Shown here piece by piece: positions 1,915-37,550 of a stretch of DNA of 64,000 nt. The translations under genes were made by a program, and so were the position numbers. The stretch comes from a virus (lineage: Duplodnaviria; Caudoviricetes): positions 5,338 through 69,337 of the IMG/VR virus record IMGVR_UViG_3300028832_000136; one strand, written 5' to 3'. Within the stretch, counting starts at the first letter, position 1. Each line of letters starts with the position of its first letter. The notes below the pieces were generated by a model. That model was given only the letters and a program-made list of their open reading frames with translations. It had not been told where the DNA came from and did not search any database.

Positions 1915-2085
1915 ATGAAGTATAAAAATGTGATAGGAAGCGATGGCAAGACACATCTCAGAAAATCGGACAATGATCCTGTTTGCCTCTGTGGACATGT
2001 AGTTGCTGGTGTACCGCAAACTTTAGTTAAGCAGCTGCCTTCTAGCTGTTCAAAGTGCAAGAAGTTGGCACAGGAAGGTGAATAA
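1915..2085 (+). CDS. Small Cys-rich hypothetical protein (56 aa; not in track)
   Basis: GAGG RBS, ATG..TAA, CxC and CxxC motifs. Confidence 0.6.
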   Translation: MKYKNVIGSDGKTHLRKSDNDPVCLCGHVVAGVPQTLVKQLPSSCSKCKKLAQEGE

Positions 2086-2972
2086 TGAACTTTTATGATG
2101 AAAATCTTCGCGTGTTGAATTTCACGCATATAGACTTTGACGGTGTGATTTCTGCTATCGTCGTGAAAACATACTACAAGAATGTTATCACTGAACAGAT
2201 AAATTACGGTCGTGAACAAGAAGCAGTTGACAAGATCATCAAGTATAAAGATAAGATTGACGCTGTTGTGTTTACTGACTTCACTCCTGTGAATATCAAG
2301 GCACTTCAGGCGATGGGCAAGCCTATCCTCGTTCTTGACCATCACGAAAGCTGCTTGTCTTTCAATGACCCACAGAACAATGTTCACATCAATCTTAAGT
2401 ACTGTGGGGCAATGCTCGCCTTCAAGTATTTCAGCGTGAAAAAGGACATGAGCCACTTGAACGATTTAGTCTTCCTTGCGAATGACTACGACTTGTTCAC
2501 ATTGTCGGATCCTCGCTCAATGCCTTTCAATGCTCTGTATTGGCAGATGGGTTTCAGATGGTTCATGACCCGCTTCATGAACGGAAATACCAAGCTTTAC
2601 CCAGAAGAAAAGCAGTACATACTTGATTACCAGAAGGCAGTTCAACTTACATATGACAACCTGCCGATAAGCGACTTGCCGCATAAGGGTTGCTTCTATG
2701 AATGTGAAATGTACATGGCTGAAATGAGCCGAAGACTGGCAAATGACGGCTATCAGTACCAAATCATCAAGCATGGAAATGCTCTCTCAATTCGTTCGGC
2801 GACCGACAACATCAACCTGCTTGATGTGTGTAAGTATGTCGGAGACGGTGGCGGACATCGCAGAGCTGCGGGCATTCCTCTCAAGCCAGGCGATGATATT
2901 AAGCTGCTTGTTCAGAAGATTTGCTTCGGCGTTGAACATGTGTTGAACAACCCAAAAGAACTTCCGTTCTAA
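2085..2972 (+). CDS. DHH/DHHA1 family phosphoesterase
   Basis: THIDFDG, FTDF, LDHHES, GGGHRRAAG. Confidence 0.9.
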   Translation: MNFYDENLRVLNFTHIDFDGVISAIVVKTYYKNVITEQINYGREQEAVDKIIKYKDKIDAVVFTDFTPVNIKALQAMGKPILVLDHHESCLSFNDPQNNVHINLKYCGAMLAFKYFSVKKDMSHLNDLVFLANDYDLFTLSDPRSMPFNALYWQMGFRWFMTRFMNGNTKLYPEEKQYILDYQKAVQLTYDNLPISDLPHKGCFYECEMYMAEMSRRLANDGYQYQIIKHGNALSIRSATDNINLLDVCKYVGDGGGHRRAAGIPLKPGDDIKLLVQKICFGVEHVLNNPKELPF

Positions 2973-2995
2973 AACTTCGAGAATAAATTTTTAAG

Positions 2996-3030
2996 ACCGG
3001 GCCTCGCAGGCTCGGTTTTTTTATTAAATT
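2996..3030 (+). terminator. Terminator hairpin plus -10 (TAAATT 3025-3030)
   Basis: ACCGGGCCT/AGGCTCGGT stem, T-run. Confidence 0.75.
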
Positions 3031-3036
3031 TGTTAT

Positions 3037-3891
3037 ATGATTTTAGCGACGATAAACAACCAATTTGACAACATTATGCAAAGCACCGAGATAACTCCGG
3101 AAGTCTTTGCTAAAGTGATTGGACTTGTTAAGAAGCCGCTGATTGTCCCAGATAAGTCAATGATACCGCAGTGGAAGTTCTGCACGATAAATGGGCAAAA
3201 GAGATGTACTGAAAACATTGGAAGCACTAACATTCTCATTCTTGACTTTGATGACGCCAATTATACCATTCAAGAATTTGAGAATCGTTTTAAGATGTAT
3301 AAGTACATTCTTCATACATCACATTCGTATGACGGCAAAAACAACAAGTTCAGAGTTCTCTTATTTTTGGATAAGAGTTATGACATAAACCGACTATTCT
3401 TCAAGTGCCACGATAAGACATTCAGTCCGTATCATTACATGCTTGAGTTCTTTCCACACATTGACCCAGCGTCATTTGTGAAAGCTCAGTTCTTTAAGAT
3501 GCCTGCATTGAAGGCACCGGGTGCACCGTATTATTACAGCATTCATAACGGAAAACTTTGGTCGCCTGAAAGCATTGAAGGGTTCCCGTTTGCTTACGCT
3601 TTGTGCGAACAGAAGCAAGAGGAATATCTTCGTAGCATTGATGAACAGAACAAAAGGAACCGTGACCCGAACCAAGATCTGACGAAAGCAAAGGAATTTG
3701 TCAAGAGAAAACTTGACGAAATGCCTGCAGGTATGCGACACAACGGCGTGTTCGGACTGGCTGCGTGGTTCTCTGGCATTGGCGGATCTTATGATGAATT
3801 TAGAAGTATTCCTCGTCCGGCTTGGGCTGACAAGGCGTATGACAAACAGATTAGCCGACTGGCAAATGAATGGTATAAGATAGGAAGATAA
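3037..3891 (+). CDS. Archaeo-eukaryotic primase (AEP)-like protein with PriCT-like C-terminus
   Basis: LILDFDD (DxD), HTSHS, KFRVLL, IDPAS, C-terminal GMRHNGVFGLAAW. Confidence 0.7.
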   Translation: MILATINNQFDNIMQSTEITPEVFAKVIGLVKKPLIVPDKSMIPQWKFCTINGQKRCTENIGSTNILILDFDDANYTIQEFENRFKMYKYILHTSHSYDGKNNKFRVLLFLDKSYDINRLFFKCHDKTFSPYHYMLEFFPHIDPASFVKAQFFKMPALKAPGAPYYYSIHNGKLWSPESIEGFPFAYALCEQKQEEYLRSIDEQNKRNRDPNQDLTKAKEFVKRKLDEMPAGMRHNGVFGLAAWFSGIGGSYDEFRSIPRPAWADKAYDKQISRLANEWYKIGR

Positions 3892-3892
3892 C

Positions 3893-4093
3893 ATGGAAGA
3901 TATGATACTTAAGACACTTAATGTTTTTATGTACATCCTGTTGGTTTGTGCGATACTTACCGCCATCGGTGCATTCTTAGGATTGCCGTTGTTCTTCGTG
4001 GAGTTCAACACATTTTTCATAATTGTAGACTTTGTTGGCATTTTGATTGTGAGAGCTTTGATAAAGTTCTTGAAGGAGAAAGGAGTTGTTTGA
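3893..4093 (+). CDS. Small membrane protein
   Basis: Two hydrophobic segments, coupled to neighbours. Confidence 0.65.
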   Translation: MEDMILKTLNVFMYILLVCAILTAIGAFLGLPLFFVEFNTFFIIVDFVGILIVRALIKFLKEKGVV

Positions 4094-4277
4094 GATTATC
4101 ATACTGCTGATTATTTCAGCAACGGTTATTACTTGCATGCTTATAAACCGTGCCTGTAAGCATGAATGGCAAATCATCAAAACCGTTAAAGTTGACACTG
4201 GCGGCTTTTGTGATTATGACAGAATTTATTTGCAGTGCAAGAAGTGCGGCGATGTAAAATGCAAGACAATGCATTGA
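4090..4277 (+). CDS. Small membrane-anchored Zn-ribbon-like protein (start approximate)
   Basis: Hydrophobic N-terminus, CKHEW...CKKCG. Confidence 0.55.
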
Positions 4278-4284
4278 GGTAAGT

Positions 4285-4809
4285 ATGAAGTTTGAAGAAA
4301 AGATGAAACGTATTGACGAGTTCTTCAATAATAAGAGTCAGCGTGATCTTCTCGAAATGATGTATAACGGTCCTATTCAGCGCATGGAAGCGTTTGACCG
4401 CAAGCTCTGGGAAGAAGTCATTGACAACCAAATTGAAGTTGGTGACGAAGATGCTTGGTATTCAAAGGACCCGAACATTCATAAGTATAAGGATCTGTGG
4501 CATTGTTTCAACCCAGCTGTTGATGAAAAGCTTCCGTGGGTTGAAGTTGAAGATGCTGACTTTCCTACAAAGTTTTTGCTTCTTGAACACAACGGCAAGC
4601 AGCTTATCACGACCCTGATGATTGGACAAGGAGCTGCCTGCGACACTTGCACCGTTGAAGGTTTCAAGGAGTGGATGAAACGAAACAAGTGGACCGCAAA
4701 GATACCTGAAAAGGGCACAACGCTTGACGAAGTCGCTCTTGCGATGAAGGATACTGTGCGGGAAATGAAGGAGGCCATCAGAAATGCAGATACCCGAAAA
4801 GGTCGGTGA
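4285..4809 (+). CDS. Hypothetical protein
   Basis: 174 aa, GAGG RBS. Confidence 0.7.
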   Translation: MKFEEKMKRIDEFFNNKSQRDLLEMMYNGPIQRMEAFDRKLWEEVIDNQIEVGDEDAWYSKDPNIHKYKDLWHCFNPAVDEKLPWVEVEDADFPTKFLLLEHNGKQLITTLMIGQGAACDTCTVEGFKEWMKRNKWTAKIPEKGTTLDEVALAMKDTVREMKEAIRNADTRKGR

Positions 4810-4930
4810 GGGCATCAAGTTTGAACATGACGTTCGCCACGAGACAGCGACTGAATTTGATGAGATCCGCGGAGAGTTTATAAATACACCCGATAAGGAA
4901 GGGTGTATTTATGAAGATATGCGGATGTGA
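4784..4930 (+). CDS. 48-aa ORF spanning the resolvase late promoter and hairpin (not in track)
   Basis: AGGAGG at 4769-4774, ATG 4784, TGA 4928-4930. Confidence 0.5.
   Translation: MQIPEKVGEGIKFEHDVRHETATEFDEIRGEFINTPDKEGCIYEDMRM
4879..4913 (+). promoter_or_regulatory. T4-type late promoter overlapping a start-codon-sequestering hairpin
   Basis: TATAAATA 4879-4886; 12-bp stem 4880-4891/4901-4912 whose 3' arm includes AT of the ATG. Confidence 0.8.
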
Positions 4931-5654
4931 TTTATCTTATACTTCTCCAGGCATCGTCATTGAAGAACTTGATGATGACCTGAATGTTGTTAAATGCGAA
5001 GGCTACGGATTTTCAATTCCGAAGTATGCAGGCGGCAATATCGTTGAATACAAAGGAAAGAAAGACTTTGTTGATGATTATGCTAGATTTAAGTTCCTGC
5101 ATGACCACATGATGAAATGGGTTGAAGGATGTGACTACGCATTCATTGAAGACTATGCTATCAATGCAAACGGTAAGGTCTTCAATCTTGCTGAATTTGA
5201 AGGATTCTTCAAGCAGCAGATGTATCGTGATGGAATCACTTTAAGATTCTATTCTCCTACTACAAACAAGAAATTTTTCGCAGGCTACGGTGGAGCCGAT
5301 AAGATCTCTATGTATCAGGCTTTCAATAAGTGGCTTGGCAAGAAACCCGACATCTCAAATTTGCCGGTAGTCAATAAGGGTGACGGCGTTCCCCCGACTT
5401 CAGATATCATTGACGCTTTTGCTTTGTGTGAGTTTGGAAGACAAGAGCTTCGTCTCCGTCGCGGAATTGACACCGCCGCAAATCTCCCGCAGCATGTTCA
5501 AGAAGTATTTGCTTTGAAGAAAGAAAAGTCTTTGAAGCGTATCGCCAAAAAGGTAGAAAAGGGTACCGCTAAGAAGCGTGAAAAGGTTGACCTTGGCATT
5601 CTTGAAACATCAATGATTGGCCTAAACCTTAAAGATGAGGACAGAGGTCAATAA
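4911..5654 (+). CDS. RuvC-like Holliday junction resolvase
   Basis: ICGCDLSYTSPG, FIEDY, PTTNKKFFAGYGGADK..M, DIIDAFAL. Confidence 0.8.
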   Translation: MKICGCDLSYTSPGIVIEELDDDLNVVKCEGYGFSIPKYAGGNIVEYKGKKDFVDDYARFKFLHDHMMKWVEGCDYAFIEDYAINANGKVFNLAEFEGFFKQQMYRDGITLRFYSPTTNKKFFAGYGGADKISMYQAFNKWLGKKPDISNLPVVNKGDGVPPTSDIIDAFALCEFGRQELRLRRGIDTAANLPQHVQEVFALKKEKSLKRIAKKVEKGTAKKREKVDLGILETSMIGLNLKDEDRGQ

Positions 5655-6184
5655 TGTCAATGTTCGGCGCTGACTTCGCGACAGGCGAGTTTTATCCTAG
5701 ACATCCAGAAAAGTGCCTGAACAAGAATGGCAAAATGCCGGGTGTCCACAAGAAGATTACATTCCGTTCCAGTTGGGAATCAATCTTTGCGAACTGGTGC
5801 GACATTGAAATGAATGTACTTGAATGGGGTTCTGAGTGCATTGAAGTGCCCTATTTCTCTCAGATTGACAATCGCCATCATAAGTATGTGACCGACTTCC
5901 TTATCGTAACCAAAAATAGAAATGGCGATGTTGAAAGGTGGCTTATTGAGATTAAGCCAGCATGTCAGGTACCGCAGCTTAACGAATGCGGGCAAATCAT
6001 CTTTCCAGAACTAAACAGAAAAAAGAAGCTGACGCAGAAAAGAATTGACGCTTGGCAAGAACGCTGTAATGTTTTACGCAGAAATCACGAAAAGTGGACA
6101 GAAGCCCGTAAATGGGCGAAACTGCACGGATATAAGTGGAAGGTCGTGACGCAGGAAGAACTCGGGTTACTTGCCGACAAGTAA
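5654..6184 (+). CDS. gp4: Head completion nuclease, T4 gp4-like
   Basis: FYPRHPEK, FRSSWE, EWGSE.IEVPY, YVTDF, IEIKP, NHEKW.EAR.W. Confidence 0.9.
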   Translation: MSMFGADFATGEFYPRHPEKCLNKNGKMPGVHKKITFRSSWESIFANWCDIEMNVLEWGSECIEVPYFSQIDNRHHKYVTDFLIVTKNRNGDVERWLIEIKPACQVPQLNECGQIIFPELNRKKKLTQKRIDAWQERCNVLRRNHEKWTEARKWAKLHGYKWKVVTQEELGLLADK

Positions 6185-6190
6185 TAAATA
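6182..6190 (+). promoter_or_regulatory. Late promoter TAATAAATA overlapping the gp4 stop codon
   Basis: Match to the T4 late consensus. Confidence 0.6.
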
Positions 6191-6214
6191 AAACAAAATA
6201 CTCACGAGGTTTGT

Positions 6215-7645
6215 ATGTTATCAGATTTTAGAAGATTTCTTATGGAAGGCACTATGCCTCAGACCGGAAACATTGTTGTTTTCTACGGTCGCTTTAATCC
6301 TCCCCATGTTGGTCATTTGGGCGTTGTAAGAAAGCTCGCAGCCCAGGCAAAGGAAGAAGAAGGCGAGGCTATCATATCGCTGTCAGGTTCTGTTGATGCT
6401 GAAAAGAACCCGCTTGACTTTGAAACAAAGAAGAAATACGTCAAGCTGATGTGTAAGCCTTATGGCGTCACTGTCGCTGAAGATCCTTGTATGAAGGTCT
6501 ATGATCTGATCCGTGACTGTGCATTCCTTTCTCAGCAGCGTGGTGGCGGTACTGTGACATTGCTCGCAGGCTCTGACCGCGTCCCAGCATATCAGGGATT
6601 CGCAAGATCATTGTTGAAGAAATACCAAGCCCGTGGTGAAATTTTGGATGTGAACGTTGTTGTTAAGGAAGCTATGGCTCGTGACTCTGACGAAGCCTTC
6701 TCAGCATCTCAGATGCGTGCTTTCATTAAGAACGGCGATGTAAACGGCTTTGTTGAACATGCTCCGTTTGATGACAAGCAAGCTGCCGAACAGATGTTCA
6801 AGGATGTAGCAAAGGGTATGGGCATTGAAGAATCCGTTGTCCGTAAGACCTTAAACGACCTTCTTGGTGAAGCTCATATCTCCCACGAGGCAAGCGATGT
6901 TAGAGCCGCCGCAATGGAAATGGGTAAACAGGTTTCTGAACATACAAACGAACTGACTGGGGAACCTGACCACCTATGGTTCATTGGCGGATGCGTCCGT
7001 GATGAAATTTTGGGCAAGACACCGAACGACTTTGACCTAATCACAACCATGTATTACAAGACTTATGCGTCCTTGTTCAATACAACAGATATCAGATTTA
7101 GAGGTAAGCAGATCATCGTTGTGCCTATCGTCGCCGGCGAAGAATTTGAAACTGCTTGCTTGCATAAAGGCGAAAAGATTGAAGACAACCTCCAATTCCG
7201 TGACCTAACAATGAATGCTATGGCACAGGACCTCGCTACTGGCGAAATTGTTGACCCATGTGGCGGACAGAAGGATATGAAGGCTCAGAAGCTCAATCTT
7301 ACCAATTTCATGAAGGAAGCAATGTCAACCGGCGGTCAACCTGTTGCAGTTCTTCGTGCTATCCGTTTCTACTCAACATACGGATGGGACTTCACCGCTG
7401 ACTCAATGGACACATTGAAGAAATTCAGCGCTGCAAACAAAGGCGTGCTTAAGGTCACACCTCGTCAGTTTGACAAGGACTGGCAGAAACTTATCAAGGG
7501 TCAAAACGTTCAAGGCGCTTTGGATTTGATTAAGGAGCTTGGCTTCCACGATTACCTAGTGAAATCTCAGCCGCAGTATGCCTCATACGTAAACGGCGAA
7601 ACAGAAGAAGAAACCACAGAACCTGCACCTGAGGAAGAAGCCTAA
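6215..7645 (+). CDS. Fusion of HxGH cytidylyltransferase-like domain and CCA/poly(A)-polymerase-family nucleotidyltransferase
   Basis: YGRFNPPHVGH, AGSDR, SASQMR; then IGGCVRD.ILG..PNDFD, RDLTMNAMA, DP.GG.KD, LRAIRF. Confidence 0.85.
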   Translation: MLSDFRRFLMEGTMPQTGNIVVFYGRFNPPHVGHLGVVRKLAAQAKEEEGEAIISLSGSVDAEKNPLDFETKKKYVKLMCKPYGVTVAEDPCMKVYDLIRDCAFLSQQRGGGTVTLLAGSDRVPAYQGFARSLLKKYQARGEILDVNVVVKEAMARDSDEAFSASQMRAFIKNGDVNGFVEHAPFDDKQAAEQMFKDVAKGMGIEESVVRKTLNDLLGEAHISHEASDVRAAAMEMGKQVSEHTNELTGEPDHLWFIGGCVRDEILGKTPNDFDLITTMYYKTYASLFNTTDIRFRGKQIIVVPIVAGEEFETACLHKGEKIEDNLQFRDLTMNAMAQDLATGEIVDPCGGQKDMKAQKLNLTNFMKEAMSTGGQPVAVLRAIRFYSTYGWDFTADSMDTLKKFSAANKGVLKVTPRQFDKDWQKLIKGQNVQGALDLIKELGFHDYLVKSQPQYASYVNGETEEETTEPAPEEEA

Positions 7646-8643
7646 TGAAGAGTGCATTTGACTTACTTGGTGACGGCAAGTGGGACCTGATGTGCCATCT
7701 CTTGGAGGTGGCAGCAAAGGGTAGAAACTTGTCAACCAAAATTGACGGCGCGCCTGCCGTTGTGATGTGGTCAGAATTCCCTGGGCTGAAAGGTCCAGGT
7801 GTTTCTTTCAAACTGATTATTCAGCAAACACAGAAGGGAACACCCGGTGCCTACTTCACAAGCAATGAAGAGATTGATAAGTTCTTCGCTGAGAAGGATA
7901 TGGAACCCGGGGCTAAGGAACATCGCATTGCATCATTTAAGAACGCTTTGAAGTTAGCCCGCACAGTTAAGCCCGGGATAATGGTTTGGGGCGATGTATT
8001 CTATGGTAAGGGCGATGAATTGACAGAGGTTGATGGCAATCCCGCATGTACCCCAAACACGCTTGAATATGTCTTTACGGACCCGCAATGGGTTGCCCAA
8101 ATTGAGAAGTCAAACTTCGGTATCTTCGTTCATACGAAGGTGTCATCCTCATTCTCTGTTTCGAGAATCAGCGATGCAAGCGGTTTGCTTGATAAATCAG
8201 AGGCTTTTGTCCTTGACCCGAACGACATTGAACCGAAGATGAAGAACTTCAATGCACCGGGCATTGGCCCAATCCGTGCTCACTGTATGTCAATAAAGGA
8301 ACTGAACGACCCGAAGTTCCAGAAGAACCTTCGTAAGGCATTCAAGACAAAGGACTTCTCAGTGCTTGGCGATAAGGCCGATGACATCGCAAACCTATGC
8401 GCTGAAATTTCCAAGGCATTGAATGACATCACCGAGCAGATTAAGCTCGGCGGTTTCTATACACGACATCAAGGCAAGCCATCAGGCGGTGAAGGTTTTG
8501 TTGTAAGTGATGGCTCGGAAGCAATGAAGCTTTTGACCGATGACTTTACTGACAAGAATTTGGCCCACATGCACAAAGTTCATGAACAGGCTAAGCAGTT
8601 GACTGAAGCAATTAACAATCTTTTGAAGGTGATGAAGAAATGA
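7645..8643 (+). CDS. RNA-ligase-like nucleotidyltransferase (DUF6267-like)
   Basis: TKIDGAPA (KxDG), PNTLEY, GEGFVV....MKL; typical neighbour of phage cytidylyltransferases. Confidence 0.6.
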   Translation: MKSAFDLLGDGKWDLMCHLLEVAAKGRNLSTKIDGAPAVVMWSEFPGLKGPGVSFKLIIQQTQKGTPGAYFTSNEEIDKFFAEKDMEPGAKEHRIASFKNALKLARTVKPGIMVWGDVFYGKGDELTEVDGNPACTPNTLEYVFTDPQWVAQIEKSNFGIFVHTKVSSSFSVSRISDASGLLDKSEAFVLDPNDIEPKMKNFNAPGIGPIRAHCMSIKELNDPKFQKNLRKAFKTKDFSVLGDKADDIANLCAEISKALNDITEQIKLGGFYTRHQGKPSGGEGFVVSDGSEAMKLLTDDFTDKNLAHMHKVHEQAKQLTEAINNLLKVMKK

Positions 8644-10013
8644 ATTTAGCTGAGTATTATGTTCAGCAGACTGGCAAAGGTCTGAATGAAAAGTTTGAAG
8701 GAAACAACATCCTTCTTTACACAACATCAAAATCTGAAGAATTTGAACAGTACTTCTTCAAGCAGGAACTGCGTTTTGCGAACAATGCCGGCAACATGTA
8801 TGGCCTTGGCATTTACACAACGCTTGAACCACCTGCAGAAGCAAATGTGGGTTATCACGACGATACCCGTCAAACATTGTATGGAAACAATGTATATGAA
8901 TTCAAGATTGCTTCTGATAAGCTGATGTATTTCATCTATTCTTACTTCGTCAAGTCAGCTCTGTTCAATGAACTCGGCAAGCCTGGAGAAGAAACATACA
9001 TTGAAGCTCAGATGAAACATTTCGGCATCAAGTATGATGAAAACGATGTTGCCCGCTTGACACCGAATGAAAAGCGTAATTCAGCTAAGTGTGCTTATGC
9101 CTTCTACAAGATGATGAACGCCGATTATTATCAGCGCGATGACGGTACTCTTGAAACTCCTATCTCCGGTTTCCTTTATGAAGGAAAGAACGATGGCCTT
9201 GTTGGCGTTATCTGGAACCCGTATGATTTGACATTGACTCGTAAGTCTATCGGCGGTGGAGATTGGCAGCCTATTTCTGGAAAGCTCGGAAAGGCAAAGA
9301 AAAATGATGTGAAGAACCGTATCTTCGCAGGCAATATGACAGATGAAAAGGTCGCTGTCTATAAGGCTCTTCAGGGTGCAAGAGACGACGAAGGCGTCGG
9401 TGGTCAGTTCACTGACATTGTAATCACCGATGATAAGATTGTCAATTTCACTTATAAGTCACTCCTTCCACAGGTTGACGGCTACAGACACTGCCTAATC
9501 ATGCAGAAGAATCCTTACTTTGAAAAGATCTTCGGTATGGGCTATCGCTTCGGTAAGGTCAACGGTTGGTTGAAGCTAGGTCACTCAACACAGGGTTCTG
9601 ACGAACAGTTCAGACCGACAACATGCCCGAAGGAATACTGGCCTGCTGAAATTTCAGAGGGTTTCTACCTAACTGGTATGGATGTGACTGACGCAGAAAT
9701 CAAGGCTCTTGCTCGTCATAAGTCAGCTGAAAACAAGCTCGCTATTCGCCGTTCAAACATTCTTACCGACAACCTTGGCAAGTTCAATGTTGAAAAGCTT
9801 GAAGAATGCACTGCACCTGACGAGATAGCAAATGCCTTGAATGCTAAGTATAAGACAGAGGTTCGCCTCCAGTCAGACTATGAAGCTGAAATTGCTCGTA
9901 AGGAAGCAGCTAAGCGTGAGAAGGAAGCAGCTAAGAAGGCCAAGGAAGAAGAGAAGGCTCGCAAGGCTGCTGAACGCGAAGCAAAGAAAGCGGCAAAGGC
10001 TACAAAGAAATAA
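8640..10013 (+). CDS. Putative ADP-ribosyltransferase-fold protein with K/E/A-rich tail
   Basis: NAGNMYGLGIYTT and YG..VYEFKI resemble the PARP-like ART core; canonical YHG is replaced by LYTT. Confidence 0.45.
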   Translation: MNLAEYYVQQTGKGLNEKFEGNNILLYTTSKSEEFEQYFFKQELRFANNAGNMYGLGIYTTLEPPAEANVGYHDDTRQTLYGNNVYEFKIASDKLMYFIYSYFVKSALFNELGKPGEETYIEAQMKHFGIKYDENDVARLTPNEKRNSAKCAYAFYKMMNADYYQRDDGTLETPISGFLYEGKNDGLVGVIWNPYDLTLTRKSIGGGDWQPISGKLGKAKKNDVKNRIFAGNMTDEKVAVYKALQGARDDEGVGGQFTDIVITDDKIVNFTYKSLLPQVDGYRHCLIMQKNPYFEKIFGMGYRFGKVNGWLKLGHSTQGSDEQFRPTTCPKEYWPAEISEGFYLTGMDVTDAEIKALARHKSAENKLAIRRSNILTDNLGKFNVEKLEECTAPDEIANALNAKYKTEVRLQSDYEAEIARKEAAKREKEAAKKAKEEEKARKAAEREAKKAAKATKK

Positions 10014-10032
10014 ATAAAGTAGAGGAATACAA

Positions 10033-11700
10033 ATGATATCAGCACACGATTTTTTGAATGAAGCAAGGGCAAAGATTGACCCGAAGCCAAAGAAGGGCGT
10101 TTCTTCTACTGACAAGCCGAAGACATCTGAAGAAGAACAGGCGGTTGCCCAGCAGAAGCCAACAACCGCTAAAATCCCAAACCGCAACATCTCAACATTT
10201 GATGTTCTTAAGCAGTATCCTGATGTTATTGCTGAACTCGAGGAACTTGCTGGCGGTCCGCTTGTAAGCGATGAAGAATTTGAAAACCCAAACTTTAACG
10301 GCTTGTTCTATAAGACATCAAACAGCGCAAGTGCCAAGCCTAAGCTTTGTATCGGTAAGGGCTCTGCGGCTGAAGCAGCAATGTTTGATGCTGGTGCTGA
10401 ACAAAGCGGACCTTCTGACATTACAATTACATTGCCGTCTGGTGCTAAGATTGCATTGCATCAGTCAGCCAAGGCAAAGTCATTTAAGTACTTGAAGAAC
10501 ACAACTGACTTCCAAGAAGCAGTAATTGCTGCTTTGATGCAGATGAAGGTTGACAAAGTTGAAATTCCTATTCCGTCTGATAAGAAGAAAGCTAAGTACC
10601 CCGTTCAGGCTTGGATGGAATCTTCTGACCCTGTAAAGAAGACAGGTATTTGCAGATATCTTGATTACACAGTACCGCCTGAAGATGTTGAACAGTTCCA
10701 AGCTGAAATCAACATGATCTTGACATCAAACAACAACGGTTGGCGAAACTGTTTTGAAGCAATTTACAGACAGGATTGGAAGCAGGTAATCAACAGCGTA
10801 TTCATCAAGCCACCTACTTGGTTCAAGCCGCTGTTCATTCATGACAACTTGAGACTGCCTGCTAACATTAAGGAATCGGCATCAAAGTTCCTTGGTAAGC
10901 AGCGCTGTGAAGTTCAGAAAGATACTGTTGATAAGACCGACGTTTTGTTGGTATTCAACAGCGCTGAAGCAGCTGATTTGATGGACCACTGTATGGAATT
11001 TAAGAAGGGCCAGATTGAAGAACATAATAACTTCGTCAACGAAATGATTAACCAAGGACGAATGCTCGGCCTATCATTGAAGCAGACAGGTGCAGATGTT
11101 ATGGTCGCCGCTGTTAACTTCAACCTTAGAACAACCGCCGTTGGTGACAACATCAATGATAAGTATAAGGTCGTTGTTCAGATTGACCCGACTAACCCTG
11201 ATAACTGCACATTCAACTGTAAAAAGGCAGCGCTGGACATTCCGAAATTCAAGGAAGGCGTTAAAACATATTGCATTGGTGTGCCGTTCAATAAGGGACA
11301 TGCCAATGACTTGCATGCAGCCGATGATGATATGTTAGGTATCTTCATTCGTGAAGCTGGCGGCACTAAGCAATGTAACTTCGGTCTTAAGGGAGCAAAG
11401 GCATTCTTCGGTAAGGGTAATCTTGCATTGAAGGACACCGTTCCTGATGAGCCTAGCTATAGACCGATTGACTTGACCGCCATCATCAATAATGCTATTG
11501 CTGATGGTAAGTCAGTTCCGGCCGCTGTATATGAAGGTGTGAAACGCATTGCATCACTAATCTTCACCCATCCGTGGACCTTTACCAAGATCTTTGCTAA
11601 GTCAGCAGGCTACCCACTTGCTATCCTTGGTAAAGATAAGAGGGGCAAGAAGAAATACAATTACGAAATCGTTGCAGCTCCTTACTTAAAGATTTTCTAA
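10033..11700 (+). CDS. Large late protein, possible PD-(D/E)xK nuclease-like domain
   Basis: DFLNEA leader; TTDFQEA, DKTDVLL, LGLSLKQ. Confidence 0.4.
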   Translation: MISAHDFLNEARAKIDPKPKKGVSSTDKPKTSEEEQAVAQQKPTTAKIPNRNISTFDVLKQYPDVIAELEELAGGPLVSDEEFENPNFNGLFYKTSNSASAKPKLCIGKGSAAEAAMFDAGAEQSGPSDITITLPSGAKIALHQSAKAKSFKYLKNTTDFQEAVIAALMQMKVDKVEIPIPSDKKKAKYPVQAWMESSDPVKKTGICRYLDYTVPPEDVEQFQAEINMILTSNNNGWRNCFEAIYRQDWKQVINSVFIKPPTWFKPLFIHDNLRLPANIKESASKFLGKQRCEVQKDTVDKTDVLLVFNSAEAADLMDHCMEFKKGQIEEHNNFVNEMINQGRMLGLSLKQTGADVMVAAVNFNLRTTAVGDNINDKYKVVVQIDPTNPDNCTFNCKKAALDIPKFKEGVKTYCIGVPFNKGHANDLHAADDDMLGIFIREAGGTKQCNFGLKGAKAFFGKGNLALKDTVPDEPSYRPIDLTAIINNAIADGKSVPAAVYEGVKRIASLIFTHPWTFTKIFAKSAGYPLAILGKDKRGKKKYNYEIVAAPYLKIF

Positions 11701-11761: not shown

Positions 11762-11767
11762 TTGTAT

Positions 11768-12613
11768 ATGAATAATTTACACGAACAATTATGGACCTCA
11801 TTTAATGACATCTCCTTTGAAGAGACTCGTCATAAATACACAGACTCACTCGGCACAAATTATCAGTCCGCAACGGGTTGGTATAAGCAGTTTGTGCCTG
11901 AGGTCAATTGGGACGAAAAAGCAAAGAACAGTGCACGAAAGAGAGCAGCAAAGAAAGTCAAAGAAGAACATCCTGAACTAACTGGAGAAGAAAAAGACAA
12001 GCTCATTGAACTTGAAACTGAAAGCCTTATCCCGAAGGTTCAGGCTGAATGGAAATATGCCGGTGACTATTCATGCGCCCTTGGAACACAAATTCACTCC
12101 GTGATGGAAAACCTTTGGTATAAGAAGGATTATCGTTTTGATAATCGTCTTGAGAAAGATTTCCCAGGAATGAAGGAAGACTTTGAATGGCGCAAGAAGT
12201 TCCGCTGCCTCCCACTTTTCAAGAAGATGAAAGGCATTTATGCACCTGTCGCAAATGAATTCGTCGTATATGACCAGCCGAATGGAATCTGTGGAACCAT
12301 TGATATGATTGCTTATAATATGAAGACCAATTCATACGCAATCATTGACTGGAAGACATCAAAATCCTTTGACACACATAGCTTTACAGGCGATGAATAT
12401 CTCAAGGCTCCGTTTGATGATCTTGAAGTATGCAACACAACTGAATACTCATTGCAGTTAAGTTTATACAAGTACATGCTTGAGAAACACACTGACATGA
12501 AGATTTCGGAATTGTTGCTTTTCCAGCTGCCAGGCGCTGATAAGAAGATTCCACTTGTCCATCGCTGTATGGACCTGTCTGGCCGTATCAAGGATTTCTT
12601 AGAGAAAAAATAA
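11768..12613 (+). CDS. PD-(D/E)xK (RecB-like) exonuclease
   Basis: ANEFVVY, ICGTIDM, IIDWKTS, YSLQLSLY. Confidence 0.85.
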   Translation: MNNLHEQLWTSFNDISFEETRHKYTDSLGTNYQSATGWYKQFVPEVNWDEKAKNSARKRAAKKVKEEHPELTGEEKDKLIELETESLIPKVQAEWKYAGDYSCALGTQIHSVMENLWYKKDYRFDNRLEKDFPGMKEDFEWRKKFRCLPLFKKMKGIYAPVANEFVVYDQPNGICGTIDMIAYNMKTNSYAIIDWKTSKSFDTHSFTGDEYLKAPFDDLEVCNTTEYSLQLSLYKYMLEKHTDMKISELLLFQLPGADKKIPLVHRCMDLSGRIKDFLEKK

Positions 12614-12677: not shown

Positions 12678-12902
12678 ATGAAAGCAGTTGTAGGCGACAA
12701 AATCCGAATCCGCGCTCTTGCGACGGATTCCGATGGCAATGAAGACCCAAGAGCCGAAGAATACAAAGGTCGAGAGGGAACCGTGGAAATGGTTGACTCG
12801 ATGGGTATTCTTCACGGAACATGGGGCTCTTTGGGAATCCTTCCTGAAGATTTTTACGACATCATAGACCACCGACCCGACTCGGAATGGAGACCACAAT
12901 GA
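12678..12902 (+). CDS. DUF4314-like small protein
   Basis: GDKIRI...GTVEMVDSMGILHGTWGSLGILPED. Confidence 0.65.
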   Translation: MKAVVGDKIRIRALATDSDGNEDPRAEEYKGREGTVEMVDSMGILHGTWGSLGILPEDFYDIIDHRPDSEWRPQ

Positions 12903-13942
12903 ATTTCCTAGAAGAAGCAGTAGGATATAAAGAAACCAAGAGGGATAAGGTCCTTCTTATTGACACAAACAACCTCAGCATGCGCTGTTTGTTCGCTTTG
13001 GCTTATGACCCGACGGACACTCAGTTCACCATCTACAAGAACGCTTTCTTGACATCACTTTGTAAGTCGGTCAAGCAGTTCAAGCCAAACAAGATTATCT
13101 TCTGTCAAGAAGGTTTTCAGAACTGGCGCCGTGAGGTATTCACAGATTATAAATGCAGCCGTGCTCCCGGACGAGAAGCCTCTCCAGTTGACTTTGACGC
13201 ATTCTTCAAGATGAACAATGAATTCATTGAAGATTTGGCGAAGTCTTTGAAGAACTGTCTTTTCTTGCGTGTTCCGCATTTGGAAGCAGATGATCTTGTT
13301 GCATTGACAACAAAATACATGCCGCAATGGGACATCACTCTTATCTCAACTGATAAGGATTTCTACCAGCTGCACAAATACCCGAACTTCAGACAGTGGG
13401 ATCCGATTAAGAATAAGTACATTCAGGTTCTTGACCCGAACCTCGCTTTGATGCAGAAGATTATCACAGGCGATAAGAGCGATGATATTCCTCAGTTGAA
13501 GAAGGGTGTCGGACCGAAGACTGTTGAAAAGATCTTGCTTGAAGGTCTTCAGGATTGGCTGACAAAGAACGACCTCCAGAAGCGATTTGATGAAAACCGT
13601 CGCTTGATTGACTTTGAGTTCATTCCTACCGAATTTCATCAGCCAGTGATTGACATTCTTGAAAACTGGCAGCAGGGTAAATTTGACGGAAGAGCTTTCT
13701 ACAACTTTATCGTTAAGCACGGTATGGGTTGTGCCCTTGAGACACTCGATGAAAAGATTGAAATCTTCAGTCAGATCCGCGGGGCAAATGATGCAGATAC
13801 AGAACCAGAACCTGTTGACATTCCTAAGACCCCAAAGGCGCCGGTAAATGAACCGCCTGCGACATCTTCGTGGGAAAAGGACGAACCGTGGTATGCAACT
13901 GGACAACCTGCACCAGCATCTGACGGATTTTCTTGGAGCTAA
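12899..13942 (+). CDS. rnh: T4-type RNase H / 5'-3' exonuclease
   Basis: LIDTNN, WRREVFTDYK..R, LEADD, STDKDFYQL, GDKSDDIP...GVGPKT. Confidence 0.92.
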   Translation: MNFLEEAVGYKETKRDKVLLIDTNNLSMRCLFALAYDPTDTQFTIYKNAFLTSLCKSVKQFKPNKIIFCQEGFQNWRREVFTDYKCSRAPGREASPVDFDAFFKMNNEFIEDLAKSLKNCLFLRVPHLEADDLVALTTKYMPQWDITLISTDKDFYQLHKYPNFRQWDPIKNKYIQVLDPNLALMQKIITGDKSDDIPQLKKGVGPKTVEKILLEGLQDWLTKNDLQKRFDENRRLIDFEFIPTEFHQPVIDILENWQQGKFDGRAFYNFIVKHGMGCALETLDEKIEIFSQIRGANDADTEPEPVDIPKTPKAPVNEPPATSSWEKDEPWYATGQPAPASDGFSWS

Positions 13943-18269: not shown

Positions 18270-18666
18270 TAGTTGCAGTGGCATTATCATTCCTTGGAAA
18301 GCAGTAAAGCATATTGAACTTGGCAAGCAGACACTTGTTGAAGGTGAAACTGATGTGTATGATTTGGACTACTTTATGGTCGCCATTGACCTGAACATGG
18401 AAGACGAATTTGAAACATATCAGTATGAAGAAACAGTTGAAGCAAGAAACGAAACATTAAGAGAATTTCACGATTGTTCAGACATCACACATCTTTACAT
18501 TGACGGCAAAGAATATCGCCCGATTTGGAAACCCGGTGCGATGTTTACCAATCCGTGGCAAGAAAACCACAGACTAACAACATCTATGGGCGATAATGAA
18601 CTTTTCATTTCTATCGCCGAAAGATCCGATGAGGTATACATTTATGCGGGAGCAGAACTTAAATAA
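18226..18666 (+). CDS. Hypothetical protein
   Basis: GGAGG RBS. Confidence 0.65.
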   Translation: MQEKATDKMLEIRFDSCSGIIIPWKAVKHIELGKQTLVEGETDVYDLDYFMVAIDLNMEDEFETYQYEETVEARNETLREFHDCSDITHLYIDGKEYRPIWKPGAMFTNPWQENHRLTTSMGDNELFISIAERSDEVYIYAGAELK

Positions 18667-19456
18667 CATCAAGATCTTTGAGGACACTCAAAAGCAGTTT
18701 GAAACGAACTTGACCCTCAAGGAAGCAACTGAAGAAGCAAAGCGTTTTACTGCATTCTACTCAAATTGGAAAGGTGGTCCGATTGACCGTTTTGACGAAC
18801 CATGTAAGGTTGTCATCTCCAAGAAGAGTTCTTTTGACGCTGCAAGAGCATACGGTGGAAAGGTTGCGGTGCTTAACTTTGCATCTGCGACAAACCCAGG
18901 CGGTGGCGTGACGAAGGGCTCTAACGCTCAGGAAGAATGCCTTTGCCGTTGCTCTAACTTGTATCAGTGTTTGAACCAGAAGGAAATGTGGGACAAGTTC
19001 TACACACCGCATCGTCAGACTGGAACACCGTTGCACAATGACGATATGATCTTGTCAAGAGTGACGATCATCAAGTCGGACTCATACAATAATCTATACA
19101 GACCGTTCACGGCTGATGTGATTACTTGCGCTGCTCCGAACTTGCGTGAAACGCCGGCTAACGCCTACAACCACGAAAGAGGTGAAGGCGTCAAGATCTC
19201 GGCTGAGGATTTGATTAAGCTGCATGAACAGCGTGCTGAAGGTATCTTGAGCCTTGCAGCCTTCAACGGCGATGATCATATCATTGTCGGTGCATTCGGT
19301 TGCGGAGCATTTAAGAACCCGCCTGAACTTGTTGCTCGGGCTTGGAAAAATGTAATAGAGAAATACAGAAAATCATTTAAGACGATTGAATTTGCTATCT
19401 TCAGCAAGTTTGACACCGTCAATTATGACGCCTTTAAGGCAGTCTTAGAAGGATAA
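18644..19456 (+). CDS. Bacterial-type PARG macrodomain (TIGR02452/DUF2263 family)
   Basis: LNFASATNPGGG....SNAQEECLCRCS.LY, LVGAFGCGAF-type motif (IIVGAFGCGAFKNPP). Confidence 0.9.
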   Translation: MREQNLNNIKIFEDTQKQFETNLTLKEATEEAKRFTAFYSNWKGGPIDRFDEPCKVVISKKSSFDAARAYGGKVAVLNFASATNPGGGVTKGSNAQEECLCRCSNLYQCLNQKEMWDKFYTPHRQTGTPLHNDDMILSRVTIIKSDSYNNLYRPFTADVITCAAPNLRETPANAYNHERGEGVKISAEDLIKLHEQRAEGILSLAAFNGDDHIIVGAFGCGAFKNPPELVARAWKNVIEKYRKSFKTIEFAIFSKFDTVNYDAFKAVLEG

Positions 19457-35582: not shown

Positions 35583-36051
35583 AAAGAAGACTGTTGAAAC
35601 GGTTGAGGAACCGGCTGAAGAAAAGGAAAAGACCATTGGCTTATTTGATGTCTTGAATATGATTGAAGGACAGAAATTGCCGTGGGACAAGCTTGATGAC
35701 GGTTATAAGAAGGCGTATAGCCAGTTTATGATAAACCGTTTCGTCAGTTCACAACCTCTTTACTGCCCAATCGTTGCAGAGCTGTCTTGTCAGCAGTTGA
35801 CTGACGAGCAGCATTACTTGATTTTGTGCAATGTTGTCGCAGGAAATCGTAAACATTGGTTCAACTACAAGGCTTATAAGAAGGAAAAGGTTGAAAAAGA
35901 CCTTGATGAGCTTATTTTTGCTTGTTGTAAAGAATATGAGATAGGACGCCGTGAAGCAAAGATGTATATAAATAATTTAGAGGAAACGGTAAAAGACCAG
36001 CTTAGAGCAAAATGGGCTGAGTCCTATAATTACGAAAGAGGAAACAAATAA
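35563..36051 (+). CDS. gp62: Clamp loader small subunit
   Basis: LFDVLN.I, YSQFMINRFVS, EQHY.IL, EYEIGRREAKMY. Confidence 0.8.
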   Translation: MAKGTTRKKTVETVEEPAEEKEKTIGLFDVLNMIEGQKLPWDKLDDGYKKAYSQFMINRFVSSQPLYCPIVAELSCQQLTDEQHYLILCNVVAGNRKHWFNYKAYKKEKVEKDLDELIFACCKEYEIGRREAKMYINNLEETVKDQLRAKWAESYNYERGNK

Positions 36052-37550
36052 TGCATAAGTCATTTAAGGATTTGATTAGCGAAGCATCTGTCGGCAAGGC
36101 AGATATTAGACGCGCCTCAGTGAATATCGTAAAATATCTGCAGAAGCATCTGGATAAGGAATTTAAGCCTTGTGATGGAAACATTTATGCAAATGGTTCC
36201 GGTACTTACACAGGTTATTTGTTCATCTGTCCGGCTGACAATGCAGCTATTCGCGTAAACTGGGCTGGCACCAAGTTCCACTCAATTAACGTTTGGAACA
36301 ATTATGTTGAAGAAGCATCTCCGGCAATGGAAATCTTCACCGGCAAGATTGCCCCAGGCGAAGCATCATTCGCCCGTTTGCTGCCTGAAATTGCAGCAGC
36401 AATTAAGGACGGCGGTTTTGCAAGCGAAGACGACGAACCGATGGACGAACTTGCCGAATCAACCAATGTAAATGAAGCCTATGAATATAACGGCAAGACC
36501 TATGGCACAAAGGTTGACATTGTTCATGCCATGTATGACGAAGGTAAGTCAGTTGAAGATATTAAGAATGCCGTTGGTTATCCTCCTGGACACATTCGTA
36601 ATTTGATTGCTCGCTATAAGGGCGAACTTGGCAGCGTTCAGAAGTCTAAGTCCGGAAAGGTCAAGGTTGTGAAGGGCGTGCCTGAAACAATTTTGCCGAA
36701 TAAGGGAACAAAGAAGGCTGATGAAGTTCTGGACGATACAGAATACGCTGACCCAGAAATCGTATTTAGTGACTTGCAGCAATATGTAACCCTAGTTGGT
36801 CGCCGTCTAATTCCAGCCCTTTTGATTACAGGTCAGGGCGGTATTGGTAAGTCATTCACCGTGACTGAAATTTTGAATAAGTATGGCAGCAAGGGTAAGG
36901 AATACGTTATCATGAAGGGTCGCTGCACTCCTTCTGCAATGTATAAGTTCCTCTATAACCATTACAACCAGATTTGCGTATTCGATGACTGTGACTCTGT
37001 TTTCGGTTCTGAAGACGGTATGAACATTCTTAAGGGCGCTTTGGACTCTGGTAACCCTCGTGAAATTTCATGGATGACAAAGGGTCCGGATATTGTGGAC
37101 ACCTTCGGTATTGAATCTCACGAAGAATGCGAACAAGCACTGGCTGCTTGGTCTGCAGAAAACAAGGGCCGTGATGGTACCCCGTCATACTTCCAGTTCA
37201 AGGGCGGTGTGATCTTCATCTCAAACTTGACAAAGCGCGATATCTACAAGAAGGACCGTGCTATTCTTTCACGCTGCACTGTTATTGACATTGTGCTTCG
37301 TGCAAAGGATGTTATCAACCGTATTGAAACCGTGCTTCCGCACATCAAGGTTTACGATATTGACGGTCATAACATCGCCAATGACAAGGGTAAGAAGATC
37401 GTATTTGACTTCATTAAGTCAGATGAATTCCAGAATCACCCGAAGATGAGAGGCAAGGAAGTTAACTTCCGTATGTTCAACCAGATTTATACCTACTGGT
37501 ATGCTGGATTTGAAAACTGGAAAGACCTAAGTTTCCGCGCAGGCGGCTAA
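36051..37550 (+). CDS. AAA+ ATPase with N-terminal domain and HTH
   Basis: LITGQGGIGKS, VFDDCDSV, LKGALDS, FKGGVIFISN, FRMF. Confidence 0.85.
   Translation: MHKSFKDLISEASVGKADIRRASVNIVKYLQKHLDKEFKPCDGNIYANGSGTYTGYLFICPADNAAIRVNWAGTKFHSINVWNNYVEEASPAMEIFTGKIAPGEASFARLLPEIAAAIKDGGFASEDDEPMDELAESTNVNEAYEYNGKTYGTKVDIVHAMYDEGKSVEDIKNAVGYPPGHIRNLIARYKGELGSVQKSKSGKVKVVKGVPETILPNKGTKKADEVLDDTEYADPEIVFSDLQQYVTLVGRRLIPALLITGQGGIGKSFTVTEILNKYGSKGKEYVIMKGRCTPSAMYKFLYNHYNQICVFDDCDSVFGSEDGMNILKGALDSGNPREISWMTKGPDIVDTFGIESHEECEQALAAWSAENKGRDGTPSYFQFKGGVIFISNLTKRDIYKKDRAILSRCTVIDIVLRAKDVINRIETVLPHIKVYDIDGHNIANDKGKKIVFDFIKSDEFQNHPKMRGKEVNFRMFNQIYTYWYAGFENWKDLSFRAGG

Follow-up and report, generated by a model that had tools for sequence, protein, structure and literature searches.

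A rare fusion of two nucleotidyltransferases as a candidate capsid-delivered precursor in a T4-like phage

In the capsid-targeting sequence (CTS) of phage T4, MKTYQEFIAE, targeting depends on residues 4 and 7, and the prohead protease is guided in its processing by residues 8 and 10 (PMC9026906). Polyvalent proteins are effectors with several domains, for which packaging, injection and release by proteolysis have been predicted (PMC5512222; PMC9503650); HxGH and CCA-type nucleotidyltransferase (NTase) domains have no mention in the survey of these proteins (PMC5512222). In CCA-adding enzymes and poly(A) polymerase (PAP), the EDxxR motif is the amino-acid template that chooses CTP and ATP, a flexible loop is needed for A addition, and both are functionally essential (PMC2532741). 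Two cyanophage 'cytitidyltransferases' were detected in CsCl-purified virions, namely S-SZBM1_140 (PMC9146016) and S-CREM2 gp154 (PMC10665884), and cytidyltransferases are often seen in cyanophage virion proteomes according to the authors of the latter study (PMC10665884). Here we compare with these systems an open reading frame (ORF) at positions 6215-7645 of a 64-kb stretch of viral DNA, referred to as the window, which is the 3' part of the 69,337-bp IMG/VR record IMGVR_UViG_3300028832_000136. The record, rated 21% complete, thus covers only part of the genome of a very large phage.

The ORF joins an HxGH nucleotidyltransferase to a minimal class II nucleotidyltransferase (mini-NTase), and the reading that we favour, with modest confidence, is that it encodes a rare two-enzyme precursor, part of a shuffled effector cassette of T4-like phages, that is delivered by the capsid. 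Its parts are given below in window coordinates; a slash marks a putative cut, and pLDDT is the predicted local distance difference test of the AlphaFold2 model.

6206-6209, + strand: Shine-Dalgarno sequence GAGG, preceding the fusion ATG
6215-7645, + strand: fusion ORF, a single ATG-initiated reading frame of 476 amino acids
6215-6247, + strand: T4 capsid-targeting-like leader MLSDFRRFLME (residues 1-11), with a predicted prohead-protease site LME11/G12
6263-6823, + strand: residues 17-203, the HxGH nucleotidyltransferase domain, placed in the viral 'cytitidyltransferase' family
6824-6889, + strand: flexible linker (residues 204-225), with IEE206 and LGE219/A220; pLDDT < 50 at 206-223
6890-7594, + strand: residues 226-460, a class II Pol-beta nucleotidyltransferase of minimal size, limited to head and neck
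7595-7642, + strand: acidic C-terminal tail (residues 461-476), pLDDT ~42, variable in the alignment

A sequence-only reading of the window had claimed that two unrelated nucleotidyltransferase folds share one polypeptide, and Pfam, PHROGs, AlphaFold2 and Foldseek agreed on this point. The Pfam matches were PF01467 (CTP_transf_like) at residues 22-95, with 26.3 bits (gathering cut-off 21), and PF01743 (PolyA_pol head) at residues 254-360, with 67.8 bits (cut-off 23). In PHROGs the protein matched a 'cytidyltransferase' and a 'tRNA nucleotidyltransferase' family, at E ~1e-28 each. The AlphaFold2 model, built with 17 homologues, consists of two confidently folded domains (block pLDDT ~85-97) joined by a low-confidence linker. 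Its predicted template modelling score (pTM) was 0.50, and the mutual orientation of the two domains is therefore predicted not to be fixed.

The fusion is genuine, lineage-conserved and rare, and is without prior characterisation. A domain-architecture search among 5.8 billion proteins recovered the full architecture in only 17 clusters (90% identity), all metagenomic and with 43-98% identity; a common and characterised architecture would have spoken against the sequence-only reading. When 1.84 billion representatives were searched exhaustively with HMMER, ~10 full-length representatives were obtained, together with the larger two-domain proteins P0096, P0099, P0107, P0109 and P0184. Both domains were found in a single locus, L016 (86% identity), among the best 80 IMG/VR loci. 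No coverage of at least 80% of the fusion was obtained in any of 50,697 GenBank phage records, in line with the earlier remark that no such fusion was recognised from model phages. Since 17 clusters from independent assemblies and the L016 locus share the architecture, it is not an assembly artefact.

The HxGH domain carries the motifs GRFNPPHVGH (H31, H34), KNPL (64-67), GSDR (119-122) and SASQMR (163-168). Both signatures of the superfamily are present, H31-V-G-H34 and S163-A-S-Q-M-R168, the latter being invariant at S, A, M and R. Matches to phrog_3041 (E 1e-28) and phrog_395 (E 3e-22), both 'cytidyltransferase', map to this domain. In profile searches the closest structures were those of NadM/archaeal NMNAT and PPAT, with matches to 2qjt, 1f9a and 8xsv. 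The modelled domain has the Rossmann-like HxGH fold of PPAT/NMNAT type, and Foldseek placed it near PPAT 1tfu (E 2e-5, TMt 0.62), as well as 2r5w and 8aih, with the PPAT/NMNAT matches ranging from E 2e-5 to 1e-4. The NCBIfam NMNAT/PPAT equivalogs all scored far below cut-off, the best NMN adenylyltransferase model (NF003786) reaching 22.5 bits vs 397.

Alignment of the HxGH domain with cyanophage proteins by hhalign gave probabilities of 99.5 for ACG-2014b gp161 (E 2e-23), 99.2 for S-SZBM1_140 and 98.6 for S-CREM2 gp154, and its atlas neighbours were 100% viral. By these comparisons the domain is placed in a virus-only family, annotated as 'cytitidyltransferase' in T4-like cyanophages. ACG-2014b gp162, which is annotated 'cytidyltransferase', was considered as a relative and showed no similarity to the fusion.

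The C-terminal domain had been called a CCA-family enzyme; the fold part of this claim holds, while four features of CCA-adding enzymes are absent. With Foldseek, CCA-adding enzymes of class II and poly(A) polymerase matched the domain at E 1e-12. Kept are GGCVRD (258-263), D272/D274, E312, D330, DPCGGQKD (347-354) and the RxxRF helix, so that motif A and the third carboxylate known from class II CCA-adding enzymes are in place. Throughout the fusion family, and among stand-alone relatives with as little as ~25% identity, the metal triad D272/D274/E312, the Asp and Thr of motif B, and motif C do not vary; D347, G351 and D354 are among the conserved active-site residues. Motif B, RRD in the canonical enzymes, reads F328-R329-D330 in the window and S-D in distant members, with D330 as the sole invariant position. 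The flexible loop between motifs A and B is replaced by a 15-residue gap relative to the Bacillus enzyme 1miv. Motif D is also different: GGQPVA stands opposite REDALR of 1miv, with G374, Q375 and A378 in place of E, D and R, and across the mini-NTase subfamily the motif is (G/Q/K)(Q/E)Px(R/A), never ED. The match covers residues 22-224 of the 404 of 1miv and the protein ends 16 residues past the neck, leaving no body or tail; accordingly, the body/tail families PF12627 and PF13735 gave no Pfam match in the fusion.

Because of the loop deletion, the loss of EDxxR and the missing body and tail, the C-terminal domain is judged from its motifs not to be a CCA-adding enzyme. It is probably an active nucleotidyltransferase, given its invariant residues, and neither domain of the fusion looks catalytically dead; a dead domain would have told against the sequence-only reading. 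Similar domains also occur in series: P0099, P0101, P0104, P0116, P0123, P0129, P0136 and P0148 contain two to six tandem mini-NTase matches, some of them with signal-peptide-like N-termini. The E. coli phage CRJP21 protein gp_271, annotated 'Appr-1-p processing', was considered as a Macro-NTase fusion and set aside, since Pfam gives PolyA_pol and an RNA-binding domain only.

The leader of the fusion resembles the T4 CTS. F5, F8, L9 and E11 match Y4, F7, I8 and E10 of T4 with an offset of one residue, such that all four functional positions agree and the spacing aromatic-x-x-F-(I/L)-x-E is preserved; model pLDDT is < 50 at residues 5-15. The cyanophage homologues begin in a similar manner, with MKKFSAFLNE in ACG-2014b gp161, MRFRQFIIE in S-SZBM1_140 and MKNFSSFLTE in S-CREM2 gp154. 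Such a leader was found on 22 of 90 HxGH-family representatives, compared with a positional background of 0.66% and with 1 of 111 class II-only proteins. Among the fusion homologues it is present in P0003-P0007, and there is none on more distant fusions. The leader match, the enrichment in the family, the presence of homologues in virions and the T4-like context together make capsid targeting of the fusion likely.

The linker segment MGIEESVVRKTLNDLLGEAHISHEAS (residues 202-227) had been described as holding several (I/L)xE sites, and it has two, IEE 204-206 and LGE 217-219, against 0.23 expected from composition. The whole fusion has four [IL]xE sites (9-11, 204-206, 217-219 and 439-441), three of which fall within the ~30 low-pLDDT residues of leader and linker. 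The linker site in the form [IL]xE-A is kept in all leader-bearing homologues. In the folded parts, the six leader-bearing homologues contain 8 [IL]xE sites vs 20 expected by composition, and the eleven leaderless ones 35 vs 38.7; this depletion fits, suggestively, an exposure of the leader-bearing group to an (I/L)xE-specific protease.

The stand-alone mini-NTases P0115, P0120, P0118, P0122, P0121 and P0127 have leaders of 11-27 residues, in which LxE[AGS] aligns column for column with LGE219/A220. The simplest reading of this alignment is that the linker could descend from the leader of a capsid-targeted mini-NTase that used to be a protein of its own, with its processing site retained. The earlier suggestion that the polypeptide is split in the prohead thus has comparative support in the CTS-type leader, the homologues in virions, the alignment of linker and leaders, and the site depletion; cleavage by the prohead protease at LGE219 is a tentative proposal, somewhat short of an even chance.

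The phage of the window is T4-like, as seen from a gp15-type tail sheath stabiliser and a gp32-type single-stranded DNA-binding protein, from boxes TATAAATA on the + strand, and from the contig of a relative (L006) that carries T4 gp13. All credible genes of the window lie on the + strand, the record stops at the tail-sheath region, and the head genes are beyond the fragment end. No tRNA genes were found in the window. Perfect copies of the T4-type late-promoter box TATAAATA number seven in the window, all on the + strand, vs 1.44 expected (~5-fold), and none of 100 shuffles reached seven; this set of boxes suggests T4-type late transcription. They start at 591, 4879, 35967, 37600, 56673, 59641 and 62437, each just upstream of an ORF. 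A variant closer to the fusion could be its own late promoter. The promoter elements near the fusion and the genes that follow it are:

4879-4886, + strand: perfect T4-type late-promoter box TATAAATA, at the head of a string of closely spaced genes (4911-11700) that includes the fusion
6183-6190, + strand: AATAAATA, which departs from the late-promoter box at one position and lies 25 nt 5' of the fusion ATG; candidate promoter
7645-8643, + strand: DUF6267 gene (PF19782), overlapping the fusion stop codon (TAATG)
8640-10013, + strand: domain X, 457 amino acids, the fourth recurrent cassette member
10033-11700, + strand: protein Y, 555 amino acids, with a capsid-targeting-like leader MISAHDFLNE/A

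Another protein with a capsid-targeting-like leader (MHKSFKDLISE/A) is encoded elsewhere in the window, at 36051-37550, with a perfect late-promoter box 77 nt upstream. The matches of this 499-amino-acid protein to STAND/AAA NTPases are weak and below Pfam cut-offs (phrog_1250).

The DUF6267 protein has an invariant K32-I-D34-G35 (KxDGAPA) as well as GGEGFVV and MKLL, in agreement with motifs I and IV of ligases. In VIA-align searches with its model, the longest alignments were to ATP-dependent RNA/DNA ligases, with weak Z of 4.2-5.2 (1xdn, Z 5.2 over 177 residues). Foldseek of the same model gave nothing at E <= 0.001, its top rows being spurious proteasome matches. From motifs and model, DUF6267 is probably, though not established to be, a ligase-like covalent nucleotidyltransferase.

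The DUF6267 gene lies directly 3' of the fusion in L003, L004, L006, L007 and L016, where the wider flanks differ. In the cyanophages ACG-2014b (gp160, E 3e-93) and S-SZBM1 (S-SZBM1_141) it lies directly upstream of the HxGH gene; a tblastn search of the window DUF6267 against GenBank phages gave no match, the cyanophage link being made via Pfam and hhalign only. The T4-like cyanophage loci L009 (2387-5988) and L011 (6989-10671) show a syntenic block of DUF6267, HxGH NTase and a protein of ~460-510 amino acids. The third gene of this block in S-SZBM1 encodes S-SZBM1_139, which was detected in the virion and has no detectable family. S-SZBM1_139 and _142 were considered as relatives of ORFs 8640 and 10033 and are unrelated to them, despite one equal length. 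Direct fusions of DUF6267 and HxGH domains, hinted at by phrog_455, were unconfirmed, and neither the lengthy extensions at the C-termini of P0096 and P0107 nor the N-terminus of P0191 could be confirmed as DUF6267.

Domain X has homologues inside giant proteins, at residues 575-977 of a 1050-amino-acid protein of L012 (49% identity), 552-931 of an 1837-amino-acid protein of L013 and 334-716 of a 924-amino-acid protein of L003. [IL]xE sites precede the X domain in all three, and that of L012 has a full CTS-like FARYILE. The atlas neighbours of ORF 8640 (score 0.82) carry ART-PolyVal or the AcrIF11 ADP-ribosyltransferase (ART), a weak lead by which the ORF 8640 domain is possibly ART-like. No family match was found for protein Y; its homologue L012_527 (31% identity) begins with MKKFSIWLKE.

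The cassette members recur in several permutations (H, HxGH NTase; N, mini-NTase; L, DUF6267; X, domain of ORF 8640; Y, protein of ORF 10033); a hyphen joins domains of one protein:

Window and L016: H-N, L, X, Y
L003, a phage recoded with TAG = Q: H-N, then L-X-... (924 amino acids)
L012, with DHH, RuvC-like, TnsA-like and PD-(D/E)XK flanks as in the window: PARG, N, H-...-X (1050 amino acids), Y
L013: N, then ...-L-X-...-ART-PolyVal (1837 amino acids)

H and a class II NTase occur together also in P0107, P0109 and P0184, the last of which adds a P-loop kinase (AAA_33) and an HD domain. On this gene-fusion pattern, of the Rosetta-stone type, we take H, N, L and X to work as one set, of which the window fusion is one permutation. 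No DUF6267 was found in the 1050-amino-acid protein of L012. The cassette is also present in a stop-codon-recoded phage, since the fusion homologue P0017 and its 924-amino-acid DUF6267-X neighbour at L003:8001-12138 (also L004 and L005) translate only with TAG = Gln. It is tied to the polyvalent proteins by the ART-PolyVal domain of the L013 giant, the only one in which that domain was found; in ORF 6215-7645 Pfam detected none of the ART-PolyVal, MuF and MPTase signature domains.

Genes for a DHH phosphoesterase, a RuvC-like resolvase, a TnsA-like endonuclease and a PD-(D/E)XK nuclease flank the cassette in the window (2085-6184 and 11762-12613), and likewise in L012. Three of these flank genes were compared between the two and showed 47-69% identity, while the enclosed cassette differs. 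With flanks kept and the contents between them different, the cassette acts like an effector island whose make-up varies inside a conserved frame. A PARG gene sits directly before the mini-NTase gene in L012, and the window itself encodes a microbial-type PARG catalytic domain at 18596-19456 (PF10021, E 2e-33).

If the leader acts as a T4-type CTS, which the comparisons support moderately, the fusion would be made late, enter the prohead core and be trimmed after LME11 by a gp21-type protease. The same protease may cut the linker at LGE219/A220, which would release two enzymes, 1:1, from one leader; this step is more weakly supported than ejection of the fusion into the host with the DNA, for which support is again moderate. 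In the cell, the HxGH half might make a pyrophosphate-linked nucleotide (NAD-, dephospho-CoA- or similar), and the mini-NTase might add nucleotides that are not C/A-templated to the 3'-OH of an RNA or nucleotide. Both halves, the ligase-like DUF6267 and the ORF 8640 domain could then act in early counter-defence or takeover, on RNA ends and/or the NAD/ADP-ribose network.

Each of these two themes fits part of the material. RNA-end repair or remodelling rests on the ligase-like DUF6267 and on P0184 (kinase, HD, HxGH and canonical class II NTase), and the NAD/ADP-ribose network rests on the NMNAT-like fold, the ART-PolyVal of L013, PARG in L012 and at window 18596, and the weak ART lead for ORF 8640. 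A further scheme would have the injected cassette build nucleotide-capped RNA for host targets: HxGH would make an NAD-like dinucleotide or cap 5'-triphosphate RNA, the mini-NTase extend its 3'-OH, DUF6267 join, the ART-like ORF 8640 domain (ART-PolyVal in relatives) transfer the product to host proteins and PARG erase it, all as protease-released units in the first seconds. We regard this scheme as very improbable.

Several observations weigh against capsid delivery of a cleavable precursor. Ten of the 17 fusion homologues have no leader, so packaging is not intrinsic to the fusion, which in those proteins must work uncleaved. The virion data concern the homologues S-SZBM1_140 and S-CREM2 gp154 only, with termini unreported; the authors also caution that virion detection may reflect carry-over of abundant proteins (PMC10665884). 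A leader of this kind is missing from DUF6267, which is also not among the proteins reported for the S-SZBM1 virion. The F-L-x-E motif can arise by chance, as it is also present in METTMNFLEE, the N-terminus of ORF 12887-13942. This ORF encodes an RNase H-like 5'-3' exonuclease (phrog_107), unlikely to be packaged, and its N-terminus was for that reason not accepted as a targeting leader. The leader-bearing homologues are closely related (56-98% identity), so the depletion statistic spans few independent lineages. The NMNAT/PPAT equivalog scores are far under cut-off. Finally, a prohead protease and a major capsid protein were sought with PF03420 and PF07068, with no match in the window record or in the L016 record, a result that is uninformative since both records are fragments and the controls were silent.

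A rather unlikely alternative is a cytoplasmic and uncleaved bifunctional RNA-repair enzyme in which the mini-NTase would rebuild RNA or tRNA 3' ends, DUF6267 would seal them and the HxGH domain would supply or recycle a cofactor, the leader and linker having no packaging role. Ten of the 17 fusion homologues are leaderless yet keep both the fusion and the DUF6267 neighbour, P0184 with its HxGH, canonical class II NTase, AAA_33 kinase and HD domains has an RNA end-healing architecture, ligase motifs are present in DUF6267, for which RNA/DNA ligases gave the best of the long structural alignments, and phage RNA repair by ligases and NTases is an established theme (PMC9503650). However, the C-terminal domain is devoid of every tRNA-specific element and of the C/A template, the cassette has no kinase or phosphoesterase healing enzyme, and tRNA genes are missing from the window; leader-bearing homologues occur in virions, and the conserved LxE motifs lie in disordered segments. 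An improbable alternative is a chance fusion, with no joint role, of an NMN adenylyltransferase for NAD+ salvage and a phage tRNA nucleotidyltransferase. It would account for NadM/archaeal NMNAT being among the best sequence and profile matches of the N-terminal domain, and large phages often carry CCA enzymes and genes for NAD salvage (PMC9503650), but the NMNAT equivalogs fall far under cut-off (22.5 vs 397 bits) with PPAT matching about equally, no NadV partner was seen in the window, and the C-terminal domain is not a CCA enzyme. In addition, H and N occur together in at least five architectures with L and X always nearby, which points to a joint function; that the leaderless fusions must function uncleaved likewise argues that the two enzymes cooperate. 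It is hardly credible that the class II domain is catalytically dead and serves as an RNA- or nucleotide-binding escort of the HxGH enzyme: RRD, EDxxR, the flexible loop and the body and tail have indeed been lost, but the triad, motif C and the Asp and Thr of motif B are invariant to ~25% identity, and motif D has been swapped for a different conserved motif rather than decayed.

Should the capsid-delivered precursor prove correct, the widespread cyanophage 'cytitidyltransferase' family would consist of capsid-targeted, ejected enzymes, which would explain its repeated appearance in virion proteomes. The T4-type CTS and (I/L)xE sites would double as internal separators, with one leader loading two enzymes, and this use would be a protease-based counterpart of the polyvalent-protein strategy. 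The comparison also defines a class II NTase subfamily that has discarded the C/A protein template and all tRNA-holding domains, and that could be regarded as a test case for nucleotide choice. The partnership of HxGH NTase, mini-NTase, DUF6267 and ORF 8640 domain provides the first functional context for DUF6267, and suggests four proteins acting in one early-infection reaction.

Among known systems, those nearest to the C-terminal half are the CCA-adding enzymes of class II, together with bacterial poly(A) polymerase I (PF01743; 1miv, 3aqm). Their head and neck have the fold seen in the fusion, which also has GGxxRD...DxD, a third carboxylate, motif C and an RxxRF helix. The window domain differs from them in its FRD motif B, its GQPVA motif D, the absence of loop, body and tail, and its size (~235 vs ~400 amino acids). 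For the N-terminal half, NMNAT (NadM/archaeal) and PPAT share the Rossmann-like HxGH fold, a GRFxPxHxGH-type P-loop and the C-terminal SxxxxR, whereas their curated equivalogs score far under threshold and the window family is confined to viruses. The cyanophage 'cytitidyltransferases' (ACG-2014b gp161, S-SZBM1_140 and S-CREM2 gp154) are of the same HxGH/TxGH family, with KNPL, G(S/G)DR and SASxMR in common, and like the fusion they have a leader and, in ACG-2014b and S-SZBM1, are paired with a DUF6267 gene; an unrelated C-terminal extension replaces the class II NTase in them, and DUF6267 is upstream, not downstream as in the window.

With T4 IPI-III and Alt, the fusion shares a leader of ~10 residues with aromatics at both positions used for targeting and I/L and E at those used for processing, as well as a setting in a T4-like phage with T4-type late-promoter boxes; it would accompany the DNA as a delivered enzyme, as Alt does, and its homologues are found in virions. 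It differs in that its cargo is a pair of NTases, not a basic internal protein or an ADP-ribosyltransferase, and that a second, internal site would split the cargo. The polyvalent proteins (Iyer et al. 2017, PMC5512222) also combine unrelated enzymatic domains on one chain that are fused or split in relatives, with ART-PolyVal carried by L013, and for them delivery with DNA and proteolytic release are predicted, as proposed here. In contrast, the fusion has two domains only, no embedded MPTase or other peptidase was found in it, and its release would need a T4-type prohead protease. The fusion is thus more than a mis-annotated CCA enzyme and belongs within known kinds, the T4 capsid-targeted proteins and the polyvalent effectors, without calling for a new category.

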